A DNA stretch of 27,678 nt from a virus (Duplodnaviria; Heunggongvirae; Uroviricota; Caudoviricetes): IMG/VR virus record IMGVR_UViG_2698536372_000020; one strand, given 5' to 3'. The position numbers were made by a program, and so were the translations under genes. Below are positions 1,887 to 25,219 of this stretch, one piece after another. Position 1 is the first letter of the stretch. Each line of letters starts with the position of its first letter. The notes below the pieces were generated by a model. That model was not told the origin of the DNA. It saw nothing but the letters and a program-made list of their open reading frames with translations, and ran no database searches.

Positions 1887-2527
1887 TTGTCGGTATACCT
1901 CTCTCGTTTACTCAGTTGTTCAGGAATATGGTGCAGCAGCTCACCGTCGCCGCAGTAAATGGCGGCATGATTCGGCACCGATGAACCAAAACAGCACAGC
2001 AGCACATCGCCCGGTTGTGCTGATGACAACGCCACCTGATACAGCCCTGTGGCCTCCAGATTATCCAGATAGAGATTCTGACCGTTACGCCACCAGTCAT
2101 CCCCGCGATGAAAATCCGGCATCTCAATCCCCGCCAGATGATAAGCATCCCGGAACAGCGTGTAACAGTCCGTCACCCCGTGCTCAAAGCGCCGCCCGGT
2201 GAGATGCGGCACACAGCGGAACTTGTGAATCGCCCCCCGGCAGACCAGCCACCACGGCAAATCACTCTGCACCTGCAGCCGCCGGTCAGCCTCACTCAGC
2301 CAGGGCAGACCACCGGGATGACTGTGGACCAGTGCCACAATCTCACCCTGCATCTCTGCCTGCAGCCAGTCCTCCGGAGCCATCCGGAAATAATCCTCCG
2401 GCTCACCGGAAATATTCACGCAGGGAAAATATCTTTCCCCCTCCGGCGCTCTCACCACGAAGCCGCACGACTCCGCTGGCGCACATCGCCGGGCGTGCGC
2501 CAGAATCGCTGATTCTGTCTCTGTCAT
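1784..2527 (-). CDS. K: Tail assembly protein K (JAMM/MPN-like motif HSHPGG plus NlpC/P60-like C-terminal region)
   Basis: Start placed at internal ATG 2527 (MTETESAILAHARRC...), 4 nt after the L stop. The track ORF start at 2569 would overlap L. The 3' end overlaps the I start by about 100 nt. Confidence 0.8.
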   Translation of the reverse strand: MTETESAILAHARRCAPAESCGFVVRAPEGERYFPCVNISGEPEDYFRMAPEDWLQAEMQGEIVALVHSHPGGLPWLSEADRRLQVQSDLPWWLVCRGAIHKFRCVPHLTGRRFEHGVTDCYTLFRDAYHLAGIEMPDFHRGDDWWRNGQNLYLDNLEATGLYQVALSSAQPGDVLLCCFGSSVPNHAAIYCGDGELLHHIPEQLSKRERYTDKWQRRTHSLWRHRAWHASAFTGIYNDLAAASTFE

Positions 2528-2531
2528 GGGA

Positions 2532-3230
2532 TTACTGCGAAAGTTTGTTAATGGAAAGGAAGCCGCCAAAGTTGCCGACGTTATTGCGAAACTTACAGCC
2601 GCTCAGGCATTTGCTGCATTTATCCTTCGTGATATCGGACGTCGGCTGGTCATATTCATCCGCGACTGCCGGACCGTGATAACCGCACTCATCACCGCGA
2701 TAGGTCCAGGTGCAGGTGTTGGCCAGCATGATACGTCCCGGAAAAACAGCGCCGTCCGTTTCCGTCGGCGTGGACAGTACAAAAGAGGCACTCACCGCGC
2801 TCAGTTCGCTGCACTGCTCAATGCGCCAGCGGCTGATCACCTCCTGCTCCGGATCGGCGTCACTGTTTCCGTTGACGAAGTTCACCGCATCCAGAAAACG
2901 GGCGTAAACCTTACGCCGGACCACCGTTCCGCCGACCAGACTCTGCAGATCTTCCGCCATCCCGGTGACCATACCGTACAGGTTAGAAACCGTCAGTGTC
3001 GGACGGGCAGCACTGCCCTTGCCGTTCAGTTCAAATCCCGTCCCCTGAATGGGGTATACCTGATACTGCCGCCCCTGCCAGATAACCGGCTCACCTTTTT
3101 CGTTCTGCTCATTACAGAAAAAATAACGTTCACCACCGACCTCTGTCAGATCGATTTCCCAGAGCACCACCTGGGCTGACTGAGTGAGGCGTGTCGTCTC
3201 ATGATGTGTTTCCTGTGGAATATCCTGCAT
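2532..3230 (-). CDS. L: Minor tail protein L
   Basis: 232-aa ORF (MQDIPQETHHETTRLTQSAQVVLWEIDLTEVGGERYFFCNEQNEKGEP...), near-identical in length and sequence to lambda gpL as recalled. Confidence 0.9.
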   Translation of the reverse strand: MQDIPQETHHETTRLTQSAQVVLWEIDLTEVGGERYFFCNEQNEKGEPVIWQGRQYQVYPIQGTGFELNGKGSAARPTLTVSNLYGMVTGMAEDLQSLVGGTVVRRKVYARFLDAVNFVNGNSDADPEQEVISRWRIEQCSELSAVSASFVLSTPTETDGAVFPGRIMLANTCTWTYRGDECGYHGPAVADEYDQPTSDITKDKCSKCLSGCKFRNNVGNFGGFLSINKLSQ

Positions 3231-13291: not shown

Positions 13292-13503
13292 CAGAACCTC
13301 GCCAGCCGGTACCCGGGATGCCCCCGTCGTCGTGTAATCAGAGCCGCAAGGCGGCGCTCCCACTCCTGCCGTCCCTGCCGGATCTCAGATAAGTTTTCCA
13401 TGGTCATCTGCTGACCATTAAAGGTGACGGATTTTCCGTCCAGCACCGCCATTTCAGCTTCCGTATAACGCTGAATCATGGCTTCGATATCATTCTGGTT
13501 CAT
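13291..13503 (-). CDS. W: gpW-like head-tail joining protein
   Basis: 70 aa from ATG 13503 (MNQNDIEAMIQRYTEAEMAVLDGKSVTFNGQQMTMENLSEIRQGRQEWERRLAALITRRRGHPGY...), preceded by GGAGGA and in ATGA overlap with the terminase stop. Resembles lambda gpW (…QRRRGPAGFYV). Confidence 0.7.
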   Translation of the reverse strand: MNQNDIEAMIQRYTEAEMAVLDGKSVTFNGQQMTMENLSEIRQGRQEWERRLAALITRRRGHPGYRLARF

Positions 13504-15599
13504 AACCATCCTCCGGAAGTCAGCCAGGGGTTAACATCGTCAGTTACTGTTTTCTTCCGTTTTTGTTTTTTAACAGGCGTGGATACCGGTTCCGGTGAGG
13601 ATGACGGTTCGGTACTGTCCTGGACACACTCCAGCCAGGTCTCCCGGCTCGCCCACTCCGGTGCATCCGGCCAGCGGATCTTTTCGTATCCATGCAGAAT
13701 GACCAGAGCCTCGGCATACACCATCAGGTCAAAAGCTTCGTTGGCACCGCGACCCGGCTTACTCCATTTCCCGTCACTGCTCCGCTCTTCATACGTCAGT
13801 TCGTCGTAAAACCAGCTCCCCAGCCAGTCAGGGAAATGCACATAGCCTGGACCTGGCGAGTCACGCCATAACGCGTTATTCACCCGGTCTTTCAGGGCAT
13901 CCGTCTGAAGAAGCCAGAGCGGCACATCACCTGCGGCCTGCGCCCGGCGGCCCGTTCGTCCGGTGTTATCAGGGAATGTACGGCTGATCAGTTTTGCGCG
14001 CCGGATGCTGTCACCCTTAAACAGGTAAATACGTTTACCAAGGCCATCACGACGGCAACGACGCCAGAATTTATAGGCATTATCAGTGACCCCGTCTTCA
14101 CCGCCGGAGTCCACCGCCATTGCCATCAGTCGCATTTGTTGAGAAGGATCGGAGGCCAGCGGCCAGCTTTTATGAAAAACATCCGTCAGCAGGACATCCC
14201 AGTCTTCCGGATAGCTGGCCGGATCAATTCGCTGGCTCTCCCCGTCGCAGTCACTGCGCAATGACTGCGTGATGTTGTAACGATCAATAATCCAGCGTTC
14301 GCCACGACTGCCATAGCCCGTTACCTGAACCACAAAACGGCGATGACGTCCCGCCTGCACATCCACTGTCGCCACAAGGAAATTAACGCCATCCGGCACA
14401 CTGCGGGAAGGAACTGGCTCTGCCCGCTGCTCAAGCAGTTCACTTTTTCGTTGCTCCATGCTGGCACGAGGAAGATAAGGCAATCCCCAGTCGGTGTTGA
14501 TAACCGCCCTGAGTGTTTCTTCGCTTCCTGTCGCTTCATACTCCTGTTCTGCAGTCAGTAATTTGTAAACCAGTTGCGCCCAGGTCTGATACGCAGCAGC
14601 TGGCCCTTCCATCCAGAAACTGGCGATACGGGAGCGGCGCGGTTCACCGGAAACGTTGCCGTTACGATCAATGACCTGACCTTCACGCAACCAGACTCCT
14701 GCACTATTGAGCTCACGCTTTTTCTCCGCAGTGATAATGCCGCTGCAGTGCGGGCAAAGTAGATACGCCGCCTCACTGGCTTTAAAGGGATCCGGTTCAT
14801 TACGGTAGCCGGTCATGGCATCCATGGCTGGCTGAAAATATTCACCGCAGTGCGGACATGACCAGTACCAGCGGCGGCGGTCACCACGATTGTAAAGGGA
14901 AAGAATACCAGTCGTCGGTGGCGCTTCATGAGGCGACTTACGTCGCCATTTGCTGTCGCAGATGTCACGTCCCGGCGAGCTCTCCACCAGAGTCATCCCA
15001 GCGGACATAAATGTGGTGGTACGTTTTGAGGCCAGGGAGAAACCATCACCCTCGCTGTCGATATTCTCCGGAAAACGGTCGTAATCGGTTAAGGCGACAA
15101 ACCGGTAATCCGACGACGACATAATGTTGACCGAGGGCCAACCAATTTTAAGGAACGAGCCATCCCTGAACGTCTTATCATGGACATTATTGTCGTTACG
15201 ACGTGGACTCATTCTTTTCTTTACCGCCGCACTGCTTCTGAACGTTCTGTCGAGGCGCTTTTTAGAATGCTCGCGGGCCTTATCTTCGGTCATCTGCACA
15301 ACGAGCATGTCCGAAGGATCGCAAACGATGGTATAGACAATCCATCCATCGATCAGACCAATGGTCTTCCCTGTTCGCGCAGGACCAACAAAAATCACCG
15401 CATCGTATTCACGCGATGCCAGGCAGTTCATGGGCTCAATGATGTAGGGTGTCAGTTCAGGATCCCATGGCACCGAGTTACCAGCCCCCTTGGGAACACG
15501 CATGAATTTTTTAACAGCCTCCGAAATCGGCATGCGACGTGGTGGGGAAAATCCTGCCGATATGTCCCTTCCCAAATTTCGGGCTGATGAAAAACCCAT
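13500..15599 (-). CDS. Terminase large subunit (lambda gpA family)
   Basis: 699-aa ORF with a P-loop-like VGPARTGKT motif and a CPHC...CPHC zinc-finger-like segment, directly downstream of the Nu1-like gene. Confidence 0.9.
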   Translation of the reverse strand: MGFSSARNLGRDISAGFSPPRRMPISEAVKKFMRVPKGAGNSVPWDPELTPYIIEPMNCLASREYDAVIFVGPARTGKTIGLIDGWIVYTIVCDPSDMLVVQMTEDKAREHSKKRLDRTFRSSAAVKKRMSPRRNDNNVHDKTFRDGSFLKIGWPSVNIMSSSDYRFVALTDYDRFPENIDSEGDGFSLASKRTTTFMSAGMTLVESSPGRDICDSKWRRKSPHEAPPTTGILSLYNRGDRRRWYWSCPHCGEYFQPAMDAMTGYRNEPDPFKASEAAYLLCPHCSGIITAEKKRELNSAGVWLREGQVIDRNGNVSGEPRRSRIASFWMEGPAAAYQTWAQLVYKLLTAEQEYEATGSEETLRAVINTDWGLPYLPRASMEQRKSELLEQRAEPVPSRSVPDGVNFLVATVDVQAGRHRRFVVQVTGYGSRGERWIIDRYNITQSLRSDCDGESQRIDPASYPEDWDVLLTDVFHKSWPLASDPSQQMRLMAMAVDSGGEDGVTDNAYKFWRRCRRDGLGKRIYLFKGDSIRRAKLISRTFPDNTGRTGRRAQAAGDVPLWLLQTDALKDRVNNALWRDSPGPGYVHFPDWLGSWFYDELTYEERSSDGKWSKPGRGANEAFDLMVYAEALVILHGYEKIRWPDAPEWASRETWLECVQDSTEPSSSPEPVSTPVKKQKRKKTVTDDVNPWLTSGGWL

Positions 15600-15607
15600 T
15601 ATTCCTC

Positions 15608-16165
15608 CTAGAGACTCTCTCCTTCCTCATCAGGAATTAATTCAGCAGCACAAGCCTCGTAGGATTTTTCCTGAAGAGTGTATCGCAGGTCATCAATGGC
15701 CTGCTGTACAACGCCGACGGCCTGAGGAGTCAGGGCGCAATCGCGTTCAAGAACATCCGGAATTGTCTCCAGAACCTGGACGACAGCCTTTCTCATGGAC
15801 GAATAGACGATGACTACTTCATCAACGGGGATGAGTTTTCGCTGCTCCTTTTCCAGCTTGATCCTTTCATTTTCAGATTGGTACCAGTCCTTTCTCTCTT
15901 TCGGCTCCATACGGGATGGATCATGAACAGAGTCTGCTGCCTCATGCTTCACACTAAACAGGGCTGGCCCGACATGCTGCAGGGCGTAAACGGGGTTCCC
16001 CCTGACAGTCGCAGCCACAGGAGTGTTAGCCGCGAGGAGCCGTTTTTTTACTGTGTCCCGGTGAAGCCCAAAGGCCTCAGCGATTTTAAAAACACTCCAG
16101 TAATAAGCATCACCGATCCCGCTCACATTTGACATAAGCAACTCCATCTGGCAGGTGAAAATCAT
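15608..16165 (-). CDS. Terminase small subunit (lambda Nu1-like DNA packaging protein, N-terminal HTH)
   Basis: HTH-like segment SVFKIAEAFGLHRDTVKKRL near the N-terminus; C-terminus ...AELIPDEEGESL echoes lambda Nu1 ...DELIPGLL. The true start may be an internal Met (MELLMSNVSG, GGAG upstream). Confidence 0.75.
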   Translation of the reverse strand: MIFTCQMELLMSNVSGIGDAYYWSVFKIAEAFGLHRDTVKKRLLAANTPVAATVRGNPVYALQHVGPALFSVKHEAADSVHDPSRMEPKERKDWYQSENERIKLEKEQRKLIPVDEVVIVYSSMRKAVVQVLETIPDVLERDCALTPQAVGVVQQAIDDLRYTLQEKSYEACAAELIPDEEGESL

Positions 16166-22657: not shown

Positions 22658-23410
22658 TTATCTCGTCACCTTCCTCAATTGCGCTTCCGCGTATGCTTCT
22701 TCCTGCCAGCACTTTGTTACCAGTTTACCAATGACGTCCGCATACCCCTTATACCACTGATAATCGGTCAGGTCTGGTACCAGCTTCTGGACATGACGTC
22801 GTGCCAGCGTGGTCGGTAAACGACTAAACCGGTTTCCATTACAACGCCCACAAATCTTATATACCGGTACGCCATGAAACCGGGTTCTTTTTTCATCCAG
22901 AACAATCCCTTTACCCTTACACCCTCTGCACGCTGTGCTGACTTCACCCTTACCATGGCAATGCTGACATAGTTCCTTCACCCATTCTTCCTTGATTACA
23001 GATTCCCCGCGTCGGTAGTGTTTCACCACTTCGCGCAATACATTATAAAATCCCGTACCTGAACAATGCTCACAGCGAGCCTTACTTGCCGCAGACCTGG
23101 AGTAATCAGCAAAGGCAAAATTCACGAGGTAAGGAATAATCTGTAACCGGATTTCTTCACTCAATTTGTTCAATGTCGGGTTATCCAGTGCCATCGCGTA
23201 ATTTAGCAGGCCTTCAATCGCAAACTGAGGGTCCTGAACACCAACTTTTGCCAGAAATAAGGCCAACCCAAGTGGTGCTTTCGACTGCACCATCCCCTGC
23301 GCTGCCATTACATCCGTAATTGTTAAACAACCGGTGCCTGTCGCTGGAGCGTCATCGCTCAATTTTGGAGATTTTGGGGAGTAATATTTTGGTAAGGCTT
23401 CAAGGTTCAT
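22658..23410 (-). CDS. quuQ: Late-gene antiterminator Q
   Basis: 250 aa from ATG 23410 (MNLEALPKYYSPKSPKLSDD...), GGAG upstream; Cys-rich zinc-binding region (CEHCSGTG...CQHCHGKGE...CRGCKGKG...CGRCNG) typical of Q proteins. Confidence 0.82.
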   Translation of the reverse strand: MNLEALPKYYSPKSPKLSDDAPATGTGCLTITDVMAAQGMVQSKAPLGLALFLAKVGVQDPQFAIEGLLNYAMALDNPTLNKLSEEIRLQIIPYLVNFAFADYSRSAASKARCEHCSGTGFYNVLREVVKHYRRGESVIKEEWVKELCQHCHGKGEVSTACRGCKGKGIVLDEKRTRFHGVPVYKICGRCNGNRFSRLPTTLARRHVQKLVPDLTDYQWYKGYADVIGKLVTKCWQEEAYAEAQLRKVTR

Positions 23411-23423
23411 GCTCGTTCTCCAC

Positions 23424-24512
23424 TTACGCCAGTACGCCAATTGCCAGCGCGCGATCGATAAAACGAAATATCAGCTCCAGTTGGGAGCCATACTTATCTT
23501 CAAATGCCACTGTATCCGTATGCAGCTCGTTGTGATGCTTTCTGCACAAAGGCAACACAAAGAGATCATGTGCTTTTGTTCCCATTCCGCCCTGCCCGTG
23601 ACCAATCAGATGATGCGGATCGTCGGCTGGCATACCGCAGCAAGCACACGGCTGTGTCTTAACCCAACGTGTGTATTTCTCCTTAACCCAGCGGCGACGT
23701 TTAGGCAGCTTCATGAAAGATTCCGGAGACTCTGGATCAACGGTGATGCTTACCACCGTCTTTTCCTGTGGTGATTTTTGTTGCTGGTGGGCGTAAGGCA
23801 ACGGTGCAAGATTTTTTGTGCGTTGTTTCAATATGCTGGTGGCGGTCTGCTCTCCCGGTACGATGTCGCTTTCGCGGTACACCGAGCAGATTTTTTCCGC
23901 TGGTAATCCCAGCGAACGACGCGATACAGCCTCAGGTAGTGCATCCACCACCTGATTGCAGACCGCCCACCAGGATAATTCAGCCAAAGATAATTCCCGC
24001 TCCTGCGTACCGCTTATTGCGTGACGGATGACGTCAATCACCCATGCTGTCAGATTTTGTTGAGCAAGCAGCTCCAGTGATTCCGATGTCTGGTCACGCA
24101 GTTGGTTGTCGCAGTGCCAGCACAACACCATTGCGCCGGTACCATAACGGTGAATGACTGTTTCAGTGTGATGGTAATCGCCATTAGGCCACTGGCAGGA
24201 TGTAACATGACGTAATAGCCAGTCGGACAATGCGCCAACGCCGCCAGCAGCACGAATCACCCGTTCGTTACTAAAAAACGGCAGCAATGTTTTGTCTTCC
24301 GCCAGCGGCTGGCGAACGGCAGGAACGACTCCGGATGGCAGATTACGCATGCTTTTTGGTTCCGGTTCCACCAGCACTCGAGGATTATGAAATATCTGTA
24401 TGGATTCACGGCCCGGCTTAAGGACCACCAGCCCAAGCTCAGGCACCAGAACAGGTCTAAGTAATACCCGCACGTTACCTCCAGATCCGTTGCTGGAAAG
24501 TGCGGGACGCAC
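23424..24512 (-). CDS. ydfU: HNH-nuclease-like protein (DUF968 type), YdfU-like
   Basis: C-terminal motif CACCGMPADDPHHLIGHGQGGMGTKAHDLFVLPLCRKHHNELH resembles an HNH nuclease motif. Start uncertain: ATG 24512 overlaps the upstream ORF by 38 nt; internal Met at 24350 is an alternative. Confidence 0.65.
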   Translation of the reverse strand: MRPALSSNGSGGNVRVLLRPVLVPELGLVVLKPGRESIQIFHNPRVLVEPEPKSMRNLPSGVVPAVRQPLAEDKTLLPFFSNERVIRAAGGVGALSDWLLRHVTSCQWPNGDYHHTETVIHRYGTGAMVLCWHCDNQLRDQTSESLELLAQQNLTAWVIDVIRHAISGTQERELSLAELSWWAVCNQVVDALPEAVSRRSLGLPAEKICSVYRESDIVPGEQTATSILKQRTKNLAPLPYAHQQQKSPQEKTVVSITVDPESPESFMKLPKRRRWVKEKYTRWVKTQPCACCGMPADDPHHLIGHGQGGMGTKAHDLFVLPLCRKHHNELHTDTVAFEDKYGSQLELIFRFIDRALAIGVLA

Positions 24513-24753
24513 GTGGTGGGCGTTCGGAATAAGGCAGCCTGACAGAGATTATCCAGTGCCGATAGTCGAGACTGAGAGCTTTCTTAACCTCGAACCCGCG
24601 CCTGCGGTAAGAATGAATCAGCCATTCGGCCTGTTCTGCAGTGCATGGAGGGTGCTGGAACCATTCAGACTTGAATGCGTGAGAATACCGCCCGTGCGTG
24701 CAGGCAAGAACGGGCGAATTATCAGAATTGTAATATTTTGCGTTGCGTGCCAT
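24475..24753 (-). CDS. Hypothetical 92-aa protein between the rem-like gene and the HNH-like gene
   Basis: ORF from the track (MARNAKYYNSDNSPVLACTHGRYSHAFKSEWFQHPPCTAEQAEWLIHSYRRRGFEVKK...); different frame from ydfU; could be a separate gene or a frameshifted N-terminal piece. Confidence 0.4.
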   Translation of the reverse strand: MARNAKYYNSDNSPVLACTHGRYSHAFKSEWFQHPPCTAEQAEWLIHSYRRRGFEVKKALSLDYRHWIISVRLPYSERPPRASRTFQQRIWR

Positions 24754-24819
24754 CGGTTTTCTCCGGTGGCACGGTGTTACTCAGCGGGAGTTCAGCCCCG
24801 CGCAAGATTGTAGATGAGT

Positions 24820-25071
24820 TTATTCTCCTGAAAAAGCAGAAAAGCCAGCTTTTATTCCGATCTCTTTCAATGCCTGTAATGAAGTGACAAACTCACCTTC
24901 GCGCAAGATAAATCCGTCCGTGACCCGAGCATCCACAAAATTAATTAACGCAGCCCCATTCTTTCGCAAACACATAATGCGGTAATGACTAACAAGATTT
25001 CCATTTTCAACGCACACAGCATAGAGGCCATCTTCACAAAAAATTTTACGCAGTTCTTCGATGTTCATCAT
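24820..25071 (-). CDS. rem: Rem-like protein, 83 aa
   Basis: ORF MMNIEELRKIFCEDGLYAVCVENGNLVSHYRIMCLRKNGAALINFVDARVTDGFILREGEFVTSLQALKEIGIKAGFSAFSGE; GGAAGGA SD; in the position and of the size of Qin rem as recalled. Confidence 0.65.
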   Translation of the reverse strand: MMNIEELRKIFCEDGLYAVCVENGNLVSHYRIMCLRKNGAALINFVDARVTDGFILREGEFVTSLQALKEIGIKAGFSAFSGE

Positions 25072-25191
25072 CAGAATCCTTCCGGATAATTAGCTCTCCC
25101 CTTTAAGGGACCATCCCTCTTATCCCTGCGCGCTACTTAAGTATTTTTGATTCTATTCCGGCACCGTCCAGAACTTCAAACGCGTTGAAAA

Positions 25192-25219
25192 TAAAAACAA
25201 AAACCCGCCGAAGCGGGTT
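25192..25219 (-). terminator. Intrinsic terminator ending the relB-relE-hokD operon
   Basis: Minus strand: 7-bp stem AACCCGC / GCGGGTT with UUCG-type loop followed by TTTTTGTTTTTATTTT, about 70 nt after the hokD stop. Confidence 0.6.

Follow-up and report, generated by a model that had tools for sequence, protein, structure and literature searches.

The window, a stretch of 27,678 nucleotides, represents an E. coli lambdoid prophage of the Qin-like type and is 100% identical to O26:H11 strain 11368. The initial annotation had described two open reading frames on its minus strand, of 362 aa (23424-24512) and 92 aa (24475-24753), lying in different frames and with 38 nt in common; the longer one was taken as an HNH nuclease gene of the DUF968 type located directly upstream of Q, and the pair was placed in a nin-like slot. 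The longer frame corresponds to ydfU, an uncharacterised 'y' gene of E. coli K-12 with close or distant copies in most E. coli genomes, and a 2.6-kb query comprising ydfT, ydfU, the small gene and rem was matched by 4924 of 5426 complete genomes. Both statements on position were correct: the Q antiterminator gene is the next one downstream in the same operon-like row and starts 13 nt after the ydfU stop codon (Table 1), and relatives of the small gene were found directly before NinG, YbcO, RusA or YdfU genes, upstream of Q. The relBE, hokD and rem genes adjoin the pair, and the terminase genes (13500-16135) are about 7 kb from ydfU, beyond the lysis cassette, ydfU itself belonging to the early or nin region. 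When the region was scanned for promoters and terminators, the number of sites was not above that of shuffled sequence. The two genes are ordinary, largely known prophage genes, and ydfU is already annotated; a search of one literature library found no biochemical or genetic study of YdfU and no functional study of YdfU or DUF968.

Table 1. Features of the ydfT-ydfU-small gene region of the window
Feature	Position	Strand	Basis
Q-type antiterminator (ydfT/quuQ)	22658..23410	-	Pfam Antiterm E=3.9e-54; annotation
ydfU CDS, 349 aa, GTG start, TAA stop	23424..24473	-	RefSeq WP_001265198.1; Pfam DUF968; phrog_96; conserved N-terminus
HNH (His-Me finger) nuclease module of YdfU, residues 266-331	23481..23678	-	hhalign, BLASTP, conservation in 36 homologues
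Middle region of YdfU, residues 160-265, matching the N-terminal part of the DUF968 model	23679..23996	-	Pfam alignment
N-terminal region of YdfU, residues 1-155	24009..24473	-	no Pfam family in 36 homologues
Predicted structural zinc site, C93-Q94...[C/H]101...C118-W-x-[H/C]121-D122-N123	24105..24197	-	counts in 36 homologues
13-codon extension of the 362-aa frame, outside the gene	24474..24512	-	no ribosome-binding site; unannotated; missing in homologues
Ribosome-binding site of ydfU, GGAGG, formed by the final two sense codons (Trp-Arg) of the small gene	24478..24482	-	read from sequence
Small gene, 92 aa, ATG start, TAA stop	24475..24753	-	RefSeq 'hypothetical protein' WP_012304870.1
Conserved 66-aa core of the small protein, residues 27-92	24478..24675	-	strand-helix-strand-strand; basic tail PRxxRxxQxxxW
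N-terminal extension of the small protein, residues 1-26	24676..24753	-	Escherichia/Shigella-type copies only; unconstrained

The 38-nt overlap turned out to be an artefact, because the start of the 362-aa frame had been set by the longest-ORF rule at the first GTG after the preceding stop codon, while RefSeq annotates the 349-aa gene listed in Table 1. On the minus strand the junction reads ...ATC TGG AGG TAA C GTG CGG..., with GGAGG placed 4 nt ahead of the GTG at 24471-24473; the GTG at 24512 has no ribosome-binding site of this kind ahead of it. The nine homologues compared, a diverse set with P1 PdcB and a protein of a Vibrio phage among them, all begin at the equivalent methionine with MR(A/V)LL, the consensus of 36 homologues begins at the equivalent residue, and for the copies of Shigella flexneri and E. 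albertii the mechanically called ORF itself starts at this position. The junction TGGAGGTAACGTG was identical in 79 of 80 related viral contigs, the remaining one having AGGAGG and so retaining the site, and analogous junctions were found in other genera (TGGGGGTGAnnATG). The real start of ydfU is the GTG at 24471-24473, and the two genes are 1 base apart; the two ORFs and their different frames were correctly described, but the genes do not overlap. The gap between the small gene and the nuclease gene is 2 nt in other lineages instead of 1 nt, and the relation between the two frames varies accordingly among lineages. A real overlap, or a programmed frameshift joining the frames, was considered and rejected in view of the conserved start 1 nt after the stop codon. 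The 92-aa frame is not an N-terminal fragment of YdfU detached by a sequencing-type frameshift, a possibility that had been raised together with the overlap: a single fusion protein was found (P0122), a singleton explained by a 13-nt deletion.

The 92-aa gene is a real, separate and conserved gene whose core is under purifying selection, with a dN/dS of 0.11 in the 66-aa core versus 0.94 in the N-terminal extension. Its conservation extends from Escherichia to Citrobacter, Kluyvera, Enterobacter, Cronobacter and Klebsiella, and its ATG has GGAG (24761-24764) 7 nt ahead of it. The phrog_1212 profile matched the small protein with E=1.7e-35, its 66 positions being spanned entirely by residues 27-92; 66-aa homologues without the extension occur, and the AF2 pLDDT was below 50 at residues 1-23. 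Database searches returned 129 and 533 relatives, all of them unnamed and without a Pfam domain except for a few chimeric or fused entries. The core did not match any known fold, and a BFVD fold search returned only an uncharacterised N15 ORF. The ninD, ninE, ninF and ninH genes of lambda and DLP12 have the size class and position of the small gene, and a short gene between an Orf-like/DUF1367 gene and the nuclease gene is a described synteny (PMC4118853). Kinship with NinD, NinE, NinF or NinH was rejected at the sequence level (hhalign ≤0.2%), Pfam NinE and NinF did not match the small protein, and P1 PdcA is unrelated as well. By our own reading, the tail of the small protein (...Q-Q-R-I-W) bears a loose likeness to clamp-binding peptides of the QxxLF type.

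The longer product was recognised by Pfam DUF968 (PF06147) with 256.6 bits against a gathering cut-off of 27.8 (E=1.5e-76), positions 1-171 of the model aligning to residues 160-346 of the 349 residues of YdfU, and phrog_96 ('HNH endonuclease') matched the protein over its full length (E=2.8e-171). The C-terminus of YdfU reads ...PCACCGMPADDPHHLIGHG...LPLCRKHHNELH. In the module, C276, C279, C310 and H313 are the predicted zinc ligands and H288, H314 and H318 the predicted catalytic residues. Among 36 homologues, C276 was present in all, C279 in 30 and C310 in 31, position 313 was C or H in 30, and each of the three histidines was found in 32. All the catalytic and zinc residues are intact in the YdfU of this prophage, as they are in 32 of the 36 homologues. 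Profile comparison of the C-terminal module with the YbcO family (PDB 3g27) using hhalign gave a probability of 94.7% (E=6e-8), and BLASTP of YdfU against YbcO gave E=5e-4. The similarity to Gp16 of Staphylococcus phage phiNM1 was of the same order in hhalign (94.9%, E=4.8e-8), with 41% identity over 59 columns in BLASTP (E=3e-10); similarity to P1 Ref was lower (BLASTP 32% identity, E=1e-3; hhalign 54%, E=1.3e-4), and that to NinG was marginal (hhalign 16%, E=1.6e-3). Judged by this homology, the C-terminal module of YdfU is of the HNH (His-Me finger) type, of the YbcO, P1 Ref and Gp16 kind. The assignment to HNH and DUF968 was therefore well founded, and it had been made before, YdfU being placed in group 7 (DUF968 and DUF1364) of the His-Me finger classification (PMC5714182).

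Pfam NinG (PF05766) matched neither YdfU nor any protein in the scan of 36 homologues, and the scores of RecA_dep_nuc (17.6 against 26.9 bits) and HNHc_6 (26.2 against 26.6 bits) on YdfU were below their cut-offs, RecA_dep_nuc giving a weak match in 7 of the 36 homologues. Gp16 itself passes the cut-off of DUF968 (29.1 against 27.8 bits) and that of HNHc_6. Sequence searches of the PDB returned nothing when the single protein or a 9-sequence profile was used, and only 3g27, with a weak E of 0.95, when a 36-sequence profile was used. In the AF2 model of YdfU the strands 285-288 and 306-309 and the helix 311-319 were formed, with block pLDDT values of 33-83 there, and the mean pLDDT of the whole model was 47.9, the alignment consisting of near-identical sequences only. 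A Foldseek search of the PDB with this low-confidence model gave nothing with E<1, four of the six top weak matches containing HNH domains. As structure prediction failed and the fold search was not significant, the HNH fold assignment rests on homology.

Upstream of the nuclease module, a Pfam scan of 36 diverse homologues (E≤1) gave nothing recurrent outside the C-terminal half, and phrog_11007, a family with no assigned function, covered residues 2-134. The N-terminal region carries a Cys/His signature in which C93 and C118 were present in all 36 homologues, position 101 was C in 18 and H in 17, position 121 was H in 24 and C in 12, and D122 was found in 34. This pattern probably binds a structural zinc; the AF2 model of this region was unusable. 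A more speculative proposal is that the N-terminal 155 residues constitute a new zinc-binding domain for DNA recognition. An Orf/NinB-like domain has been proposed for DUF968 proteins of Gram-positive origin (PMC4118853). Such a domain was not detected N-terminal to the HNH module of YdfU: residues 1-60, 60-160 and 130-255 compared with lambda NinB, YbcN and a phiES15 homologue gave hhalign probabilities of at most 0.3%, and the N-terminal and middle regions compared with NinB/YbcN and Gp16 gave less than 6%; the profiles were small, and a very distant kinship would be possible. By eye, the motifs CQ...[C/H]...CWx[H/C]DN and CxxC...HH...CxxHH look alike. The idea that the N-terminus is a degenerate duplicate of the HNH module was not supported, hhalign giving the same register but P=0.12, and P=0.39 against YbcO. 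Longer 'fusions' carrying the N-terminus of YdfU in the representative library were assembly chimeras with tail-fibre sequence and not domain architectures.

Among the closest parallels is Gp16, a RecA-dependent nickase that was found in experiments to bind RecA and to be stimulated by this protein (Xu et al., NAR 2026, PMC12817073). Six of its residues examined by mutagenesis in that study (C148, C181, H184, H157, H185 and H189) align to C279, C310, H313, H288, H314 and H318 of YdfU, its C145 aligning to C276. The two proteins have the same spacing, CxxC-(8)-H...CRxHHxxxH; all six mutagenised residues are conserved in YdfU, and each of the six YdfU counterparts is conserved in at least 30 of the 36 homologues. 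Both are products of early-region genes of temperate phages, and phiNM1 carries a RusA gene too. However, Gp16 has 223 aa, a NinB/Orf-like N-terminal domain and a Gram-positive host, whereas YdfU has 349 aa, no NinB-like part and a Gram-negative host. From this residue-by-residue link a concrete functional hypothesis follows for YdfU and, more generally, for the YbcO/DUF968 group. P1 Ref, described as an HNH nuclease that depends on RecA and cleaves D-loops (PMC3973344, PMC4330346), has a core motif in common with YdfU, PCxxC...HH[IL]xG...LPLCRxHH...KY (PDB 3PLW for Ref); a disordered basic N-terminus of 76 residues is given for Ref in PMC4330346, versus the 265 residues that precede the module in YdfU. 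Two parts that YdfU lacks, a NinB-like domain in Gp16 and a basic disordered N-terminus in Ref, may be those that confer RecA dependence.

YbcO of prophage DLP12 (DUF1364) shares group 7 of the His-Me finger classification with YdfU (PMC5714182) and occupies the same nin position, adjoining RusA and before Q, and the small gene precedes YbcO in other genera. With 96 aa, YbcO is the nuclease module alone, and its function, too, is a predicted one (PMC4999995). P1 PdcB is a full-length homologue of YdfU (26% identity over 91% of YdfU), but it does not have the HH pair and the helix histidines; the loss of the catalytic histidines in this lineage suggests that part of the function of the family may not need cleavage.

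The Rap/NinG gene of lambda, a known branch-specific endonuclease and His-Me finger family member (PMC5714182), holds the slot of YdfU before Q. In Enterobacteriaceae prophages the small gene was always immediately 5' of a NinG, YbcO, RusA or YdfU gene, and in 29 loci the gene starting a few bases past its stop codon encoded NinG (13), YbcO (6), RusA (6) or a DUF968 protein (5). Among 45 loci, which were sampled through the small gene and whose counts are not phylogenetically independent, NinG was alone in 16 and never together with RusA, YdfU was accompanied by RusA in 13 and alone in 6, and YbcO was followed by RusA in 6. RusA is absent from the YdfU locus studied here. That NinG stands alone and that YbcO and YdfU usually have RusA beside them suggests how the work of processing recombination intermediates is shared out between two proteins in lambdoid phages. 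As for the small gene, its place beside four unrelated nucleases may reflect no more than the set order in which genes are arranged in mosaic lambdoid genomes.

The computations establish the limits of the genes, their homology, the residues that are conserved, the selection acting and the synteny; the nuclease activity of YdfU, its substrate, its dependence on RecA, the binding of zinc and the coupling of the two genes are inferred. Taken as a whole, the explanation that we favour, and hold to be reasonably probable, is that of two translationally coupled nin genes, in which YdfU would most likely be a metal-dependent nickase and the small gene would be independent. YdfU would most likely nick DNA at recombination or replication intermediates, e.g. 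D-loops, and by analogy with Ref and Gp16 it may be stimulated by RecA. In related phages a nuclease of the YdfU class is usually accompanied by the Holliday-junction resolvase RusA, the two together filling the place that NinG/Rap holds alone. With its last two codons the small gene supplies the ribosome-binding site for the nuclease gene behind it, whichever that is, and the small protein and the nuclease are for this reason probably co-produced. Of the three roles proposed initially for the nuclease, recombination was the one favoured by our results, and packaging support and exclusion were not, the terminase genes being distant and PADLOC models giving no match.

YdfU could also be a stand-alone structure-specific endonuclease or Holliday-junction resolvase, a RecA-free substitute for Rap/NinG or RusA. 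This proposal would agree with the place of YdfU in the NinG/RusA slot, directly between the small gene on the 5' side and Q on the 3' side, with the lack of any other nuclease from the slot in this prophage, phage Tritos and a Klebsiella phage, and with the grouping of YdfU with recombination functions by neighbourhood in the His-Me classification (PMC5714182). We regard it as unlikely, since the match to the NinG profile is the weak one given above and RusA was present in 13 of 19 YdfU loci versus none of 16 NinG loci, a co-occurrence which argues for an activity of YdfU that is complementary and not redundant. A primarily DNA-binding or regulatory role of YdfU tied to late gene expression, its nuclease activity being secondary or lost, seems to us very unlikely. 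Even in distant phages a gene of this family does directly precede the late regulator, which is Q in lambdoids and, downstream of PdcB in P1, the late-gene activator Lpa, and PdcB and three other proteins without the catalytic histidines keep the N-terminal zinc signature, D303, K258 and C276; but the full set of catalytic and zinc residues is intact in this prophage and in most homologues, and the adjacency of ydfU and Q is explained by the conserved order of nin genes (PMC4118853).

The neighbourhood of the pair, with relBE, hokD and rem in the window and with the phd-doc toxin-antitoxin pair preceding PdcB in P1, would suit a module for exclusion or defence, or else a nuclease paired with an immunity-type partner, that benefits the host as relBE and hokD do. 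The toxicity of overexpressed Gp16 (PMC12817073) and the tight coupling of the small gene to the nuclease gene point in the same direction. However, neither YdfU, the small protein nor Rem matched any PADLOC model (E≤0.01), and the small gene also stands ahead of nucleases that have no structural kinship (RusA as against the HNH types), an argument against a specific inhibitor. Such a small gene is moreover missing upstream of many YdfU homologues (SfV, YeP1, BZS1, a Vibrio phage and P1), and functional temperate phages carry both genes, located within their conserved early region, so that a defence role appears highly improbable. A packaging-associated protein that aids the terminase in the manner of HK97 gp74 is extremely improbable: the terminases of cos phages are commonly helped by HNH proteins (PMC12817073), but the genes of the gp74 type adjoin those of the terminase, from which ydfU is well separated, and the closest relatives of YdfU (YbcO, Ref and Gp16) are not packaging proteins.

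For the small gene we also considered, as a distinctly doubtful proposal, that the 66-aa core protein is a dedicated accessory factor of the DNA-junction nucleases of the nin region, whose invariant basic tail would deliver the nuclease to a host target common to all of them, such as RecA filaments, SSB or the sliding clamp. The small protein would then be made in a fixed ratio with the NinG, YbcO, RusA or YdfU that follows. If this were true, it would be an unrecognised component of phage recombination modules and a functional, unannotated gene of K-12. The small gene is missing from the K-12 MG1655 reference annotation and from Pfam, which amounts to a modest annotation gap and not to a discovery.

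Both ORFs of the initial annotation were present, and the Cys/His pattern of the long one (YdfU), with HHNELH at its end, was confirmed. The reported 38 nt overlap between them is not real, being the product of taking the earliest possible start of the long ORF, and the length of 362 aa repeated an old database version, identified as such in a note in the P1 record and since corrected. Four lines of evidence place the true ydfU start at a GTG codon, one base after the stop of the small 92-aa gene. RefSeq uses this start, giving 349 aa, and the minus-strand junction reads ATC TGG AGG TAA C GTG, where GGAGG, within the last two codons of the small gene, lies four bases 5' of the GTG. The equivalent Met opens an MR(A/V)LL start in each of nine diverse homologues, P1 PdcB and a Vibrio phage protein among them; a 36-homologue consensus begins at that residue too, and in the copies of Shigella flexneri and E. 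albertii the ORF cannot be read any further upstream. The GGAGG-TAA-C-GTG junction was kept in 80 of 80 related viral contigs (with AGGAGG upstream in one) and was followed by a YdfU homologue in 78, the other two stopping before that point. These are two separate genes, with the ribosome-binding site of ydfU contained in the end of the small gene, and the nuclease and the small protein are probably translated together.

The finding itself is ordinary: ydfU has already been named and catalogued within a known superfamily, and RefSeq lists the small gene as a hypothetical protein. Added here are the corrected ydfU boundary, a residue-by-residue tie of YdfU to a newly characterised RecA-dependent nickase, a putative zinc signature in the N-terminal region, the contrast between solitary NinG and YbcO or YdfU paired with RusA, and a conserved small gene in the pre-nuclease slot that is missing from the K-12 reference.

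Coordinates of the features in the window and in the comparison loci
Feature	Sequence	Position (strand)	Remark
ydfT/quuQ (antiterminator Q)	window	22658-23410 (-)	
ydfU	window	23424-24473 (-)	349 aa
ydfU, initial version	window	23424-24512	362 aa
ydfU GTG start	window	24471-24473	
small gene	window	24475-24753 (-)	92 aa
N-terminal extension of small gene	window	24676-24753 (-)	
promoter-like site before small gene	window	24807-24834 (-)	
rem	window	24820-25071 (-)	
promoter-like site before rem	window	25150-25179 (-)	
terminator-like hairpin directly 3' of hokD	window	25202-25219 (-)	
92-aa ORF of K-12 MG1655	L009	1307-1585 (-)	NC_000913.3, about 1644306-1644584
phd to lpa of P1	L014	1592-3989	AF234172.1, 88046-90443
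DUF1367, 66-aa gene and nuclease	L101-L125	about 2390-3000 per locus	

The HNH (DUF968) assignment was borne out by Pfam DUF968 (residues 160-346, E=1.5e-76), by a profile of residues 255-349 built from 36 homologues, which matched the YbcO family with a probability of 94.7% (E=6e-8), and by BLASTP with Gp16 of the S. aureus phage phiNM1 (41% identity over YdfU residues 273-328, E=3e-10; hhalign 94.9%). The same profile gave 54% with P1 Ref (E=1.3e-4) and only 16% with NinG; pairwise BLASTP of YdfU gave E=1e-3 with Ref and 5e-4 with YbcO. The Pfam matches to HNHc_6 and RecA_dep_nuc were both sub-threshold, and PHROG 96, 'HNH endonuclease', covered YdfU in full. DUF968 and DUF1364 form group 7 of the His-Me finger superfamily, in which YdfU is named (PMC5714182), and YbcO (DUF1364, PDB 3g27) is a predicted nuclease related to P1 Ref (PMC4999995). 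The family is moderately large: when clustered at 50% identity, 2885 clusters matched YdfU at E<=1e-3, mainly through the HNH module, and 96 at E<=1e-30.

Gp16, the best characterised relative of YdfU, is a strong HNHc_6 member that also exceeds the DUF968 cut-off. This nickase is expressed early and binds host RecA, which enhances its activity; efficient phage replication depends on it (PMC12817073, 2026). The residues mutated in that study, C148, C181 and H184 of the zinc site and the catalytic H157, H185 and H189, align to YdfU C279, C310, H313, H288, H314 and H318, each kept in at least 30 of the 36 homologues; YdfU carries an intact Ref/Gp16/YbcO-type HNH module. Four homologues (P1 PdcB and the database proteins P0349, P0361 and P0416) lack the catalytic histidines at alignment positions 287/288, 314 and 318 and retain the N-terminal Cys/His site, K258, C276 and D303; judging from the alignment, they probably form a nuclease-dead sub-lineage.

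Outside the HNH module, no known family accounts for YdfU. Residues 1-155 had no recurrent Pfam match in any of the 36 diverse homologues and bear a clear metal-site signature, with C93 and C118 invariant, Cys or His at position 101 in 35 of 36 and His or Cys at position 121 in all. The profile comparison of this region with the HNH zinc finger, of which it was suspected to be a degenerate copy, was not significant (P=0.12). The Orf/NinB-like domain proposed for Gram-positive DUF968 proteins (PMC4118853) was not detected in YdfU by profile comparison. The structure prediction (mean pLDDT 47.9) was unusable because its alignment held near-identical sequences only, and a fold search with this model gave nothing informative.

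The 92-aa ORF is a real gene. Its core (residues 27-92) matches PHROG 1212, a family of unknown function, and hundreds of unnamed relatives were found, without any Pfam domain bar a few chimeric or fused entries. The gene is present in phages deposited as isolates (mEp460_ev081, Tritos and HannyBb), and a 66-68 aa form corresponding to the core occurs in phages or prophages of Citrobacter, Kluyvera, Enterobacter, Cronobacter, Klebsiella and Salmonella; the frame is conserved across genera. Among 42 different alleles of the 92-aa form, dN/dS was 0.11 in codons 27-82, 0.04 in the last ten codons and 0.94 in the N-terminal 25 codons; the core is under purifying selection. The N-terminal extension, with dN/dS near 1, had a synonymous divergence of 0.155 versus 0.346 in the core, which could reflect recombination history or nucleotide-level constraint. 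A fusion to YdfU turned up in a single contig, created by a 13-nt deletion, and therefore the small gene is not a frameshifted ydfU fragment. An identical ORF lies between ydfU and rem in K-12 MG1655, where the RefSeq record leaves it unannotated; in other strains it is a hypothetical protein.

The survey of the small gene, with one genome per species, gave 36 loci, all from Enterobacteriaceae except one 22.9-kb contig in a Veillonella parvula MAG bin (L097, JAGZPX010000007.1), which bears the E. coli module (small protein 91% identity) and is almost certainly mis-binned. The next gene begins a few bases after the small-gene stop, the junction typically being TGG GGG TGA nn ATG, and in 29 loci it encoded NinG (13/29), YbcO (6/29), RusA (6/29) or DUF968 (5/29). 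The presence of the same small gene beside structurally unrelated nucleases speaks against a specific inhibitor; the small protein may be a partner of the nuclease or no more than its neighbour within a mosaic genome. DUF1367 lay upstream in most 66-aa loci, mostly with a 5-nt gap, and a compact cassette of DUF1367, the 66-aa gene and the nuclease was observed in Citrobacter, Kluyvera, Enterobacter and related prophages. Among 45 mutually related loci, whose counts are descriptive and not independent, NinG occurred alone in 16 and with RusA in none, YdfU with RusA in 13 and alone in 6, as in the prophage of the window, and YbcO followed by RusA in 6. The YdfU/YbcO family usually accompanies the junction resolvase RusA in the slot that NinG/Rap fills alone.

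YdfU is very probably an HNH-type DNA nuclease or nickase, and we favour a role in the processing of recombination or replication intermediates; dependence on RecA is a tentative proposal. The protein would be a zinc-containing, metal-dependent nickase. Because Ref and Gp16, the two characterised relatives, work on RecA-bound DNA, and because of the companionship with RusA, its probable substrate is an intermediate of recombination or replication, for example a D-loop, and RecA may stimulate the reaction. A Rap-like resolvase that needs no RecA is a possible alternative, although YdfU occurs so often with RusA that the fit is poor. The constant place before Q or P1 Lpa and the existence of nuclease-dead PdcB-type members suggested a regulatory or DNA-binding role, an unlikely alternative; the catalytic residues are intact in the YdfU of the window. 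Defence or exclusion by the two genes found no support in PADLOC and is improbable, and help in packaging is extremely unlikely, the genomic position being wrong for it.

Over the 2.6 kb around both genes, identity to the chromosomes of E. coli O26:H11 strain 11368 and of many further strains was 100%. Coordinates of the whole 27.7-kb window, extrapolated from this match, delimit a Qin-like lambdoid prophage in 11368 that is collinear with the window. The same module occurs in the cryptic prophage Qin of K-12 MG1655. The annotated minus-strand order is relB, relE, hokD, rem, 'hypothetical protein', ydfU and ydfT, followed by cold-shock genes, a lysis cassette, terminase, and head and tail genes; the position of ydfU before Q is fixed. 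P1 mirrors the part from relBE/hokD through rem, the small gene and ydfU to Q with phd, doc, pdcA (66 aa), pdcB (homologous to ydfU) and lpa (late activator). PdcA bears no similarity to the small gene, and no relation of the small protein to PdcA or to lambda NinD, NinE, NinF or NinH was found. Promoter- and terminator-like sites were seen near hokD, rem and the small gene, in numbers not above those in shuffled sequence. Rem matched solely PHROG 340, of unknown function, apart from a far sub-threshold hit to the model of the SocB toxin. In some phage records the small gene adjoining rem is called 'toxin to Rem', with no evidence behind the label.

Finally, some database entries join the YdfU N-terminus to tail-fibre sequence or carry internal tandem duplications (P0295, P0339, P0340, P0406, P0337; P0121, P0127, P0130, P0227), which probably arose in assembly or by rearrangement at prophage repeats. 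Rare 607-aa gene calls (P0123, P0124 and P0126) join YdfU to the downstream Q and carry the Pfam family PF27659, a match probably due to the N-terminal half of Q and not to YdfU.
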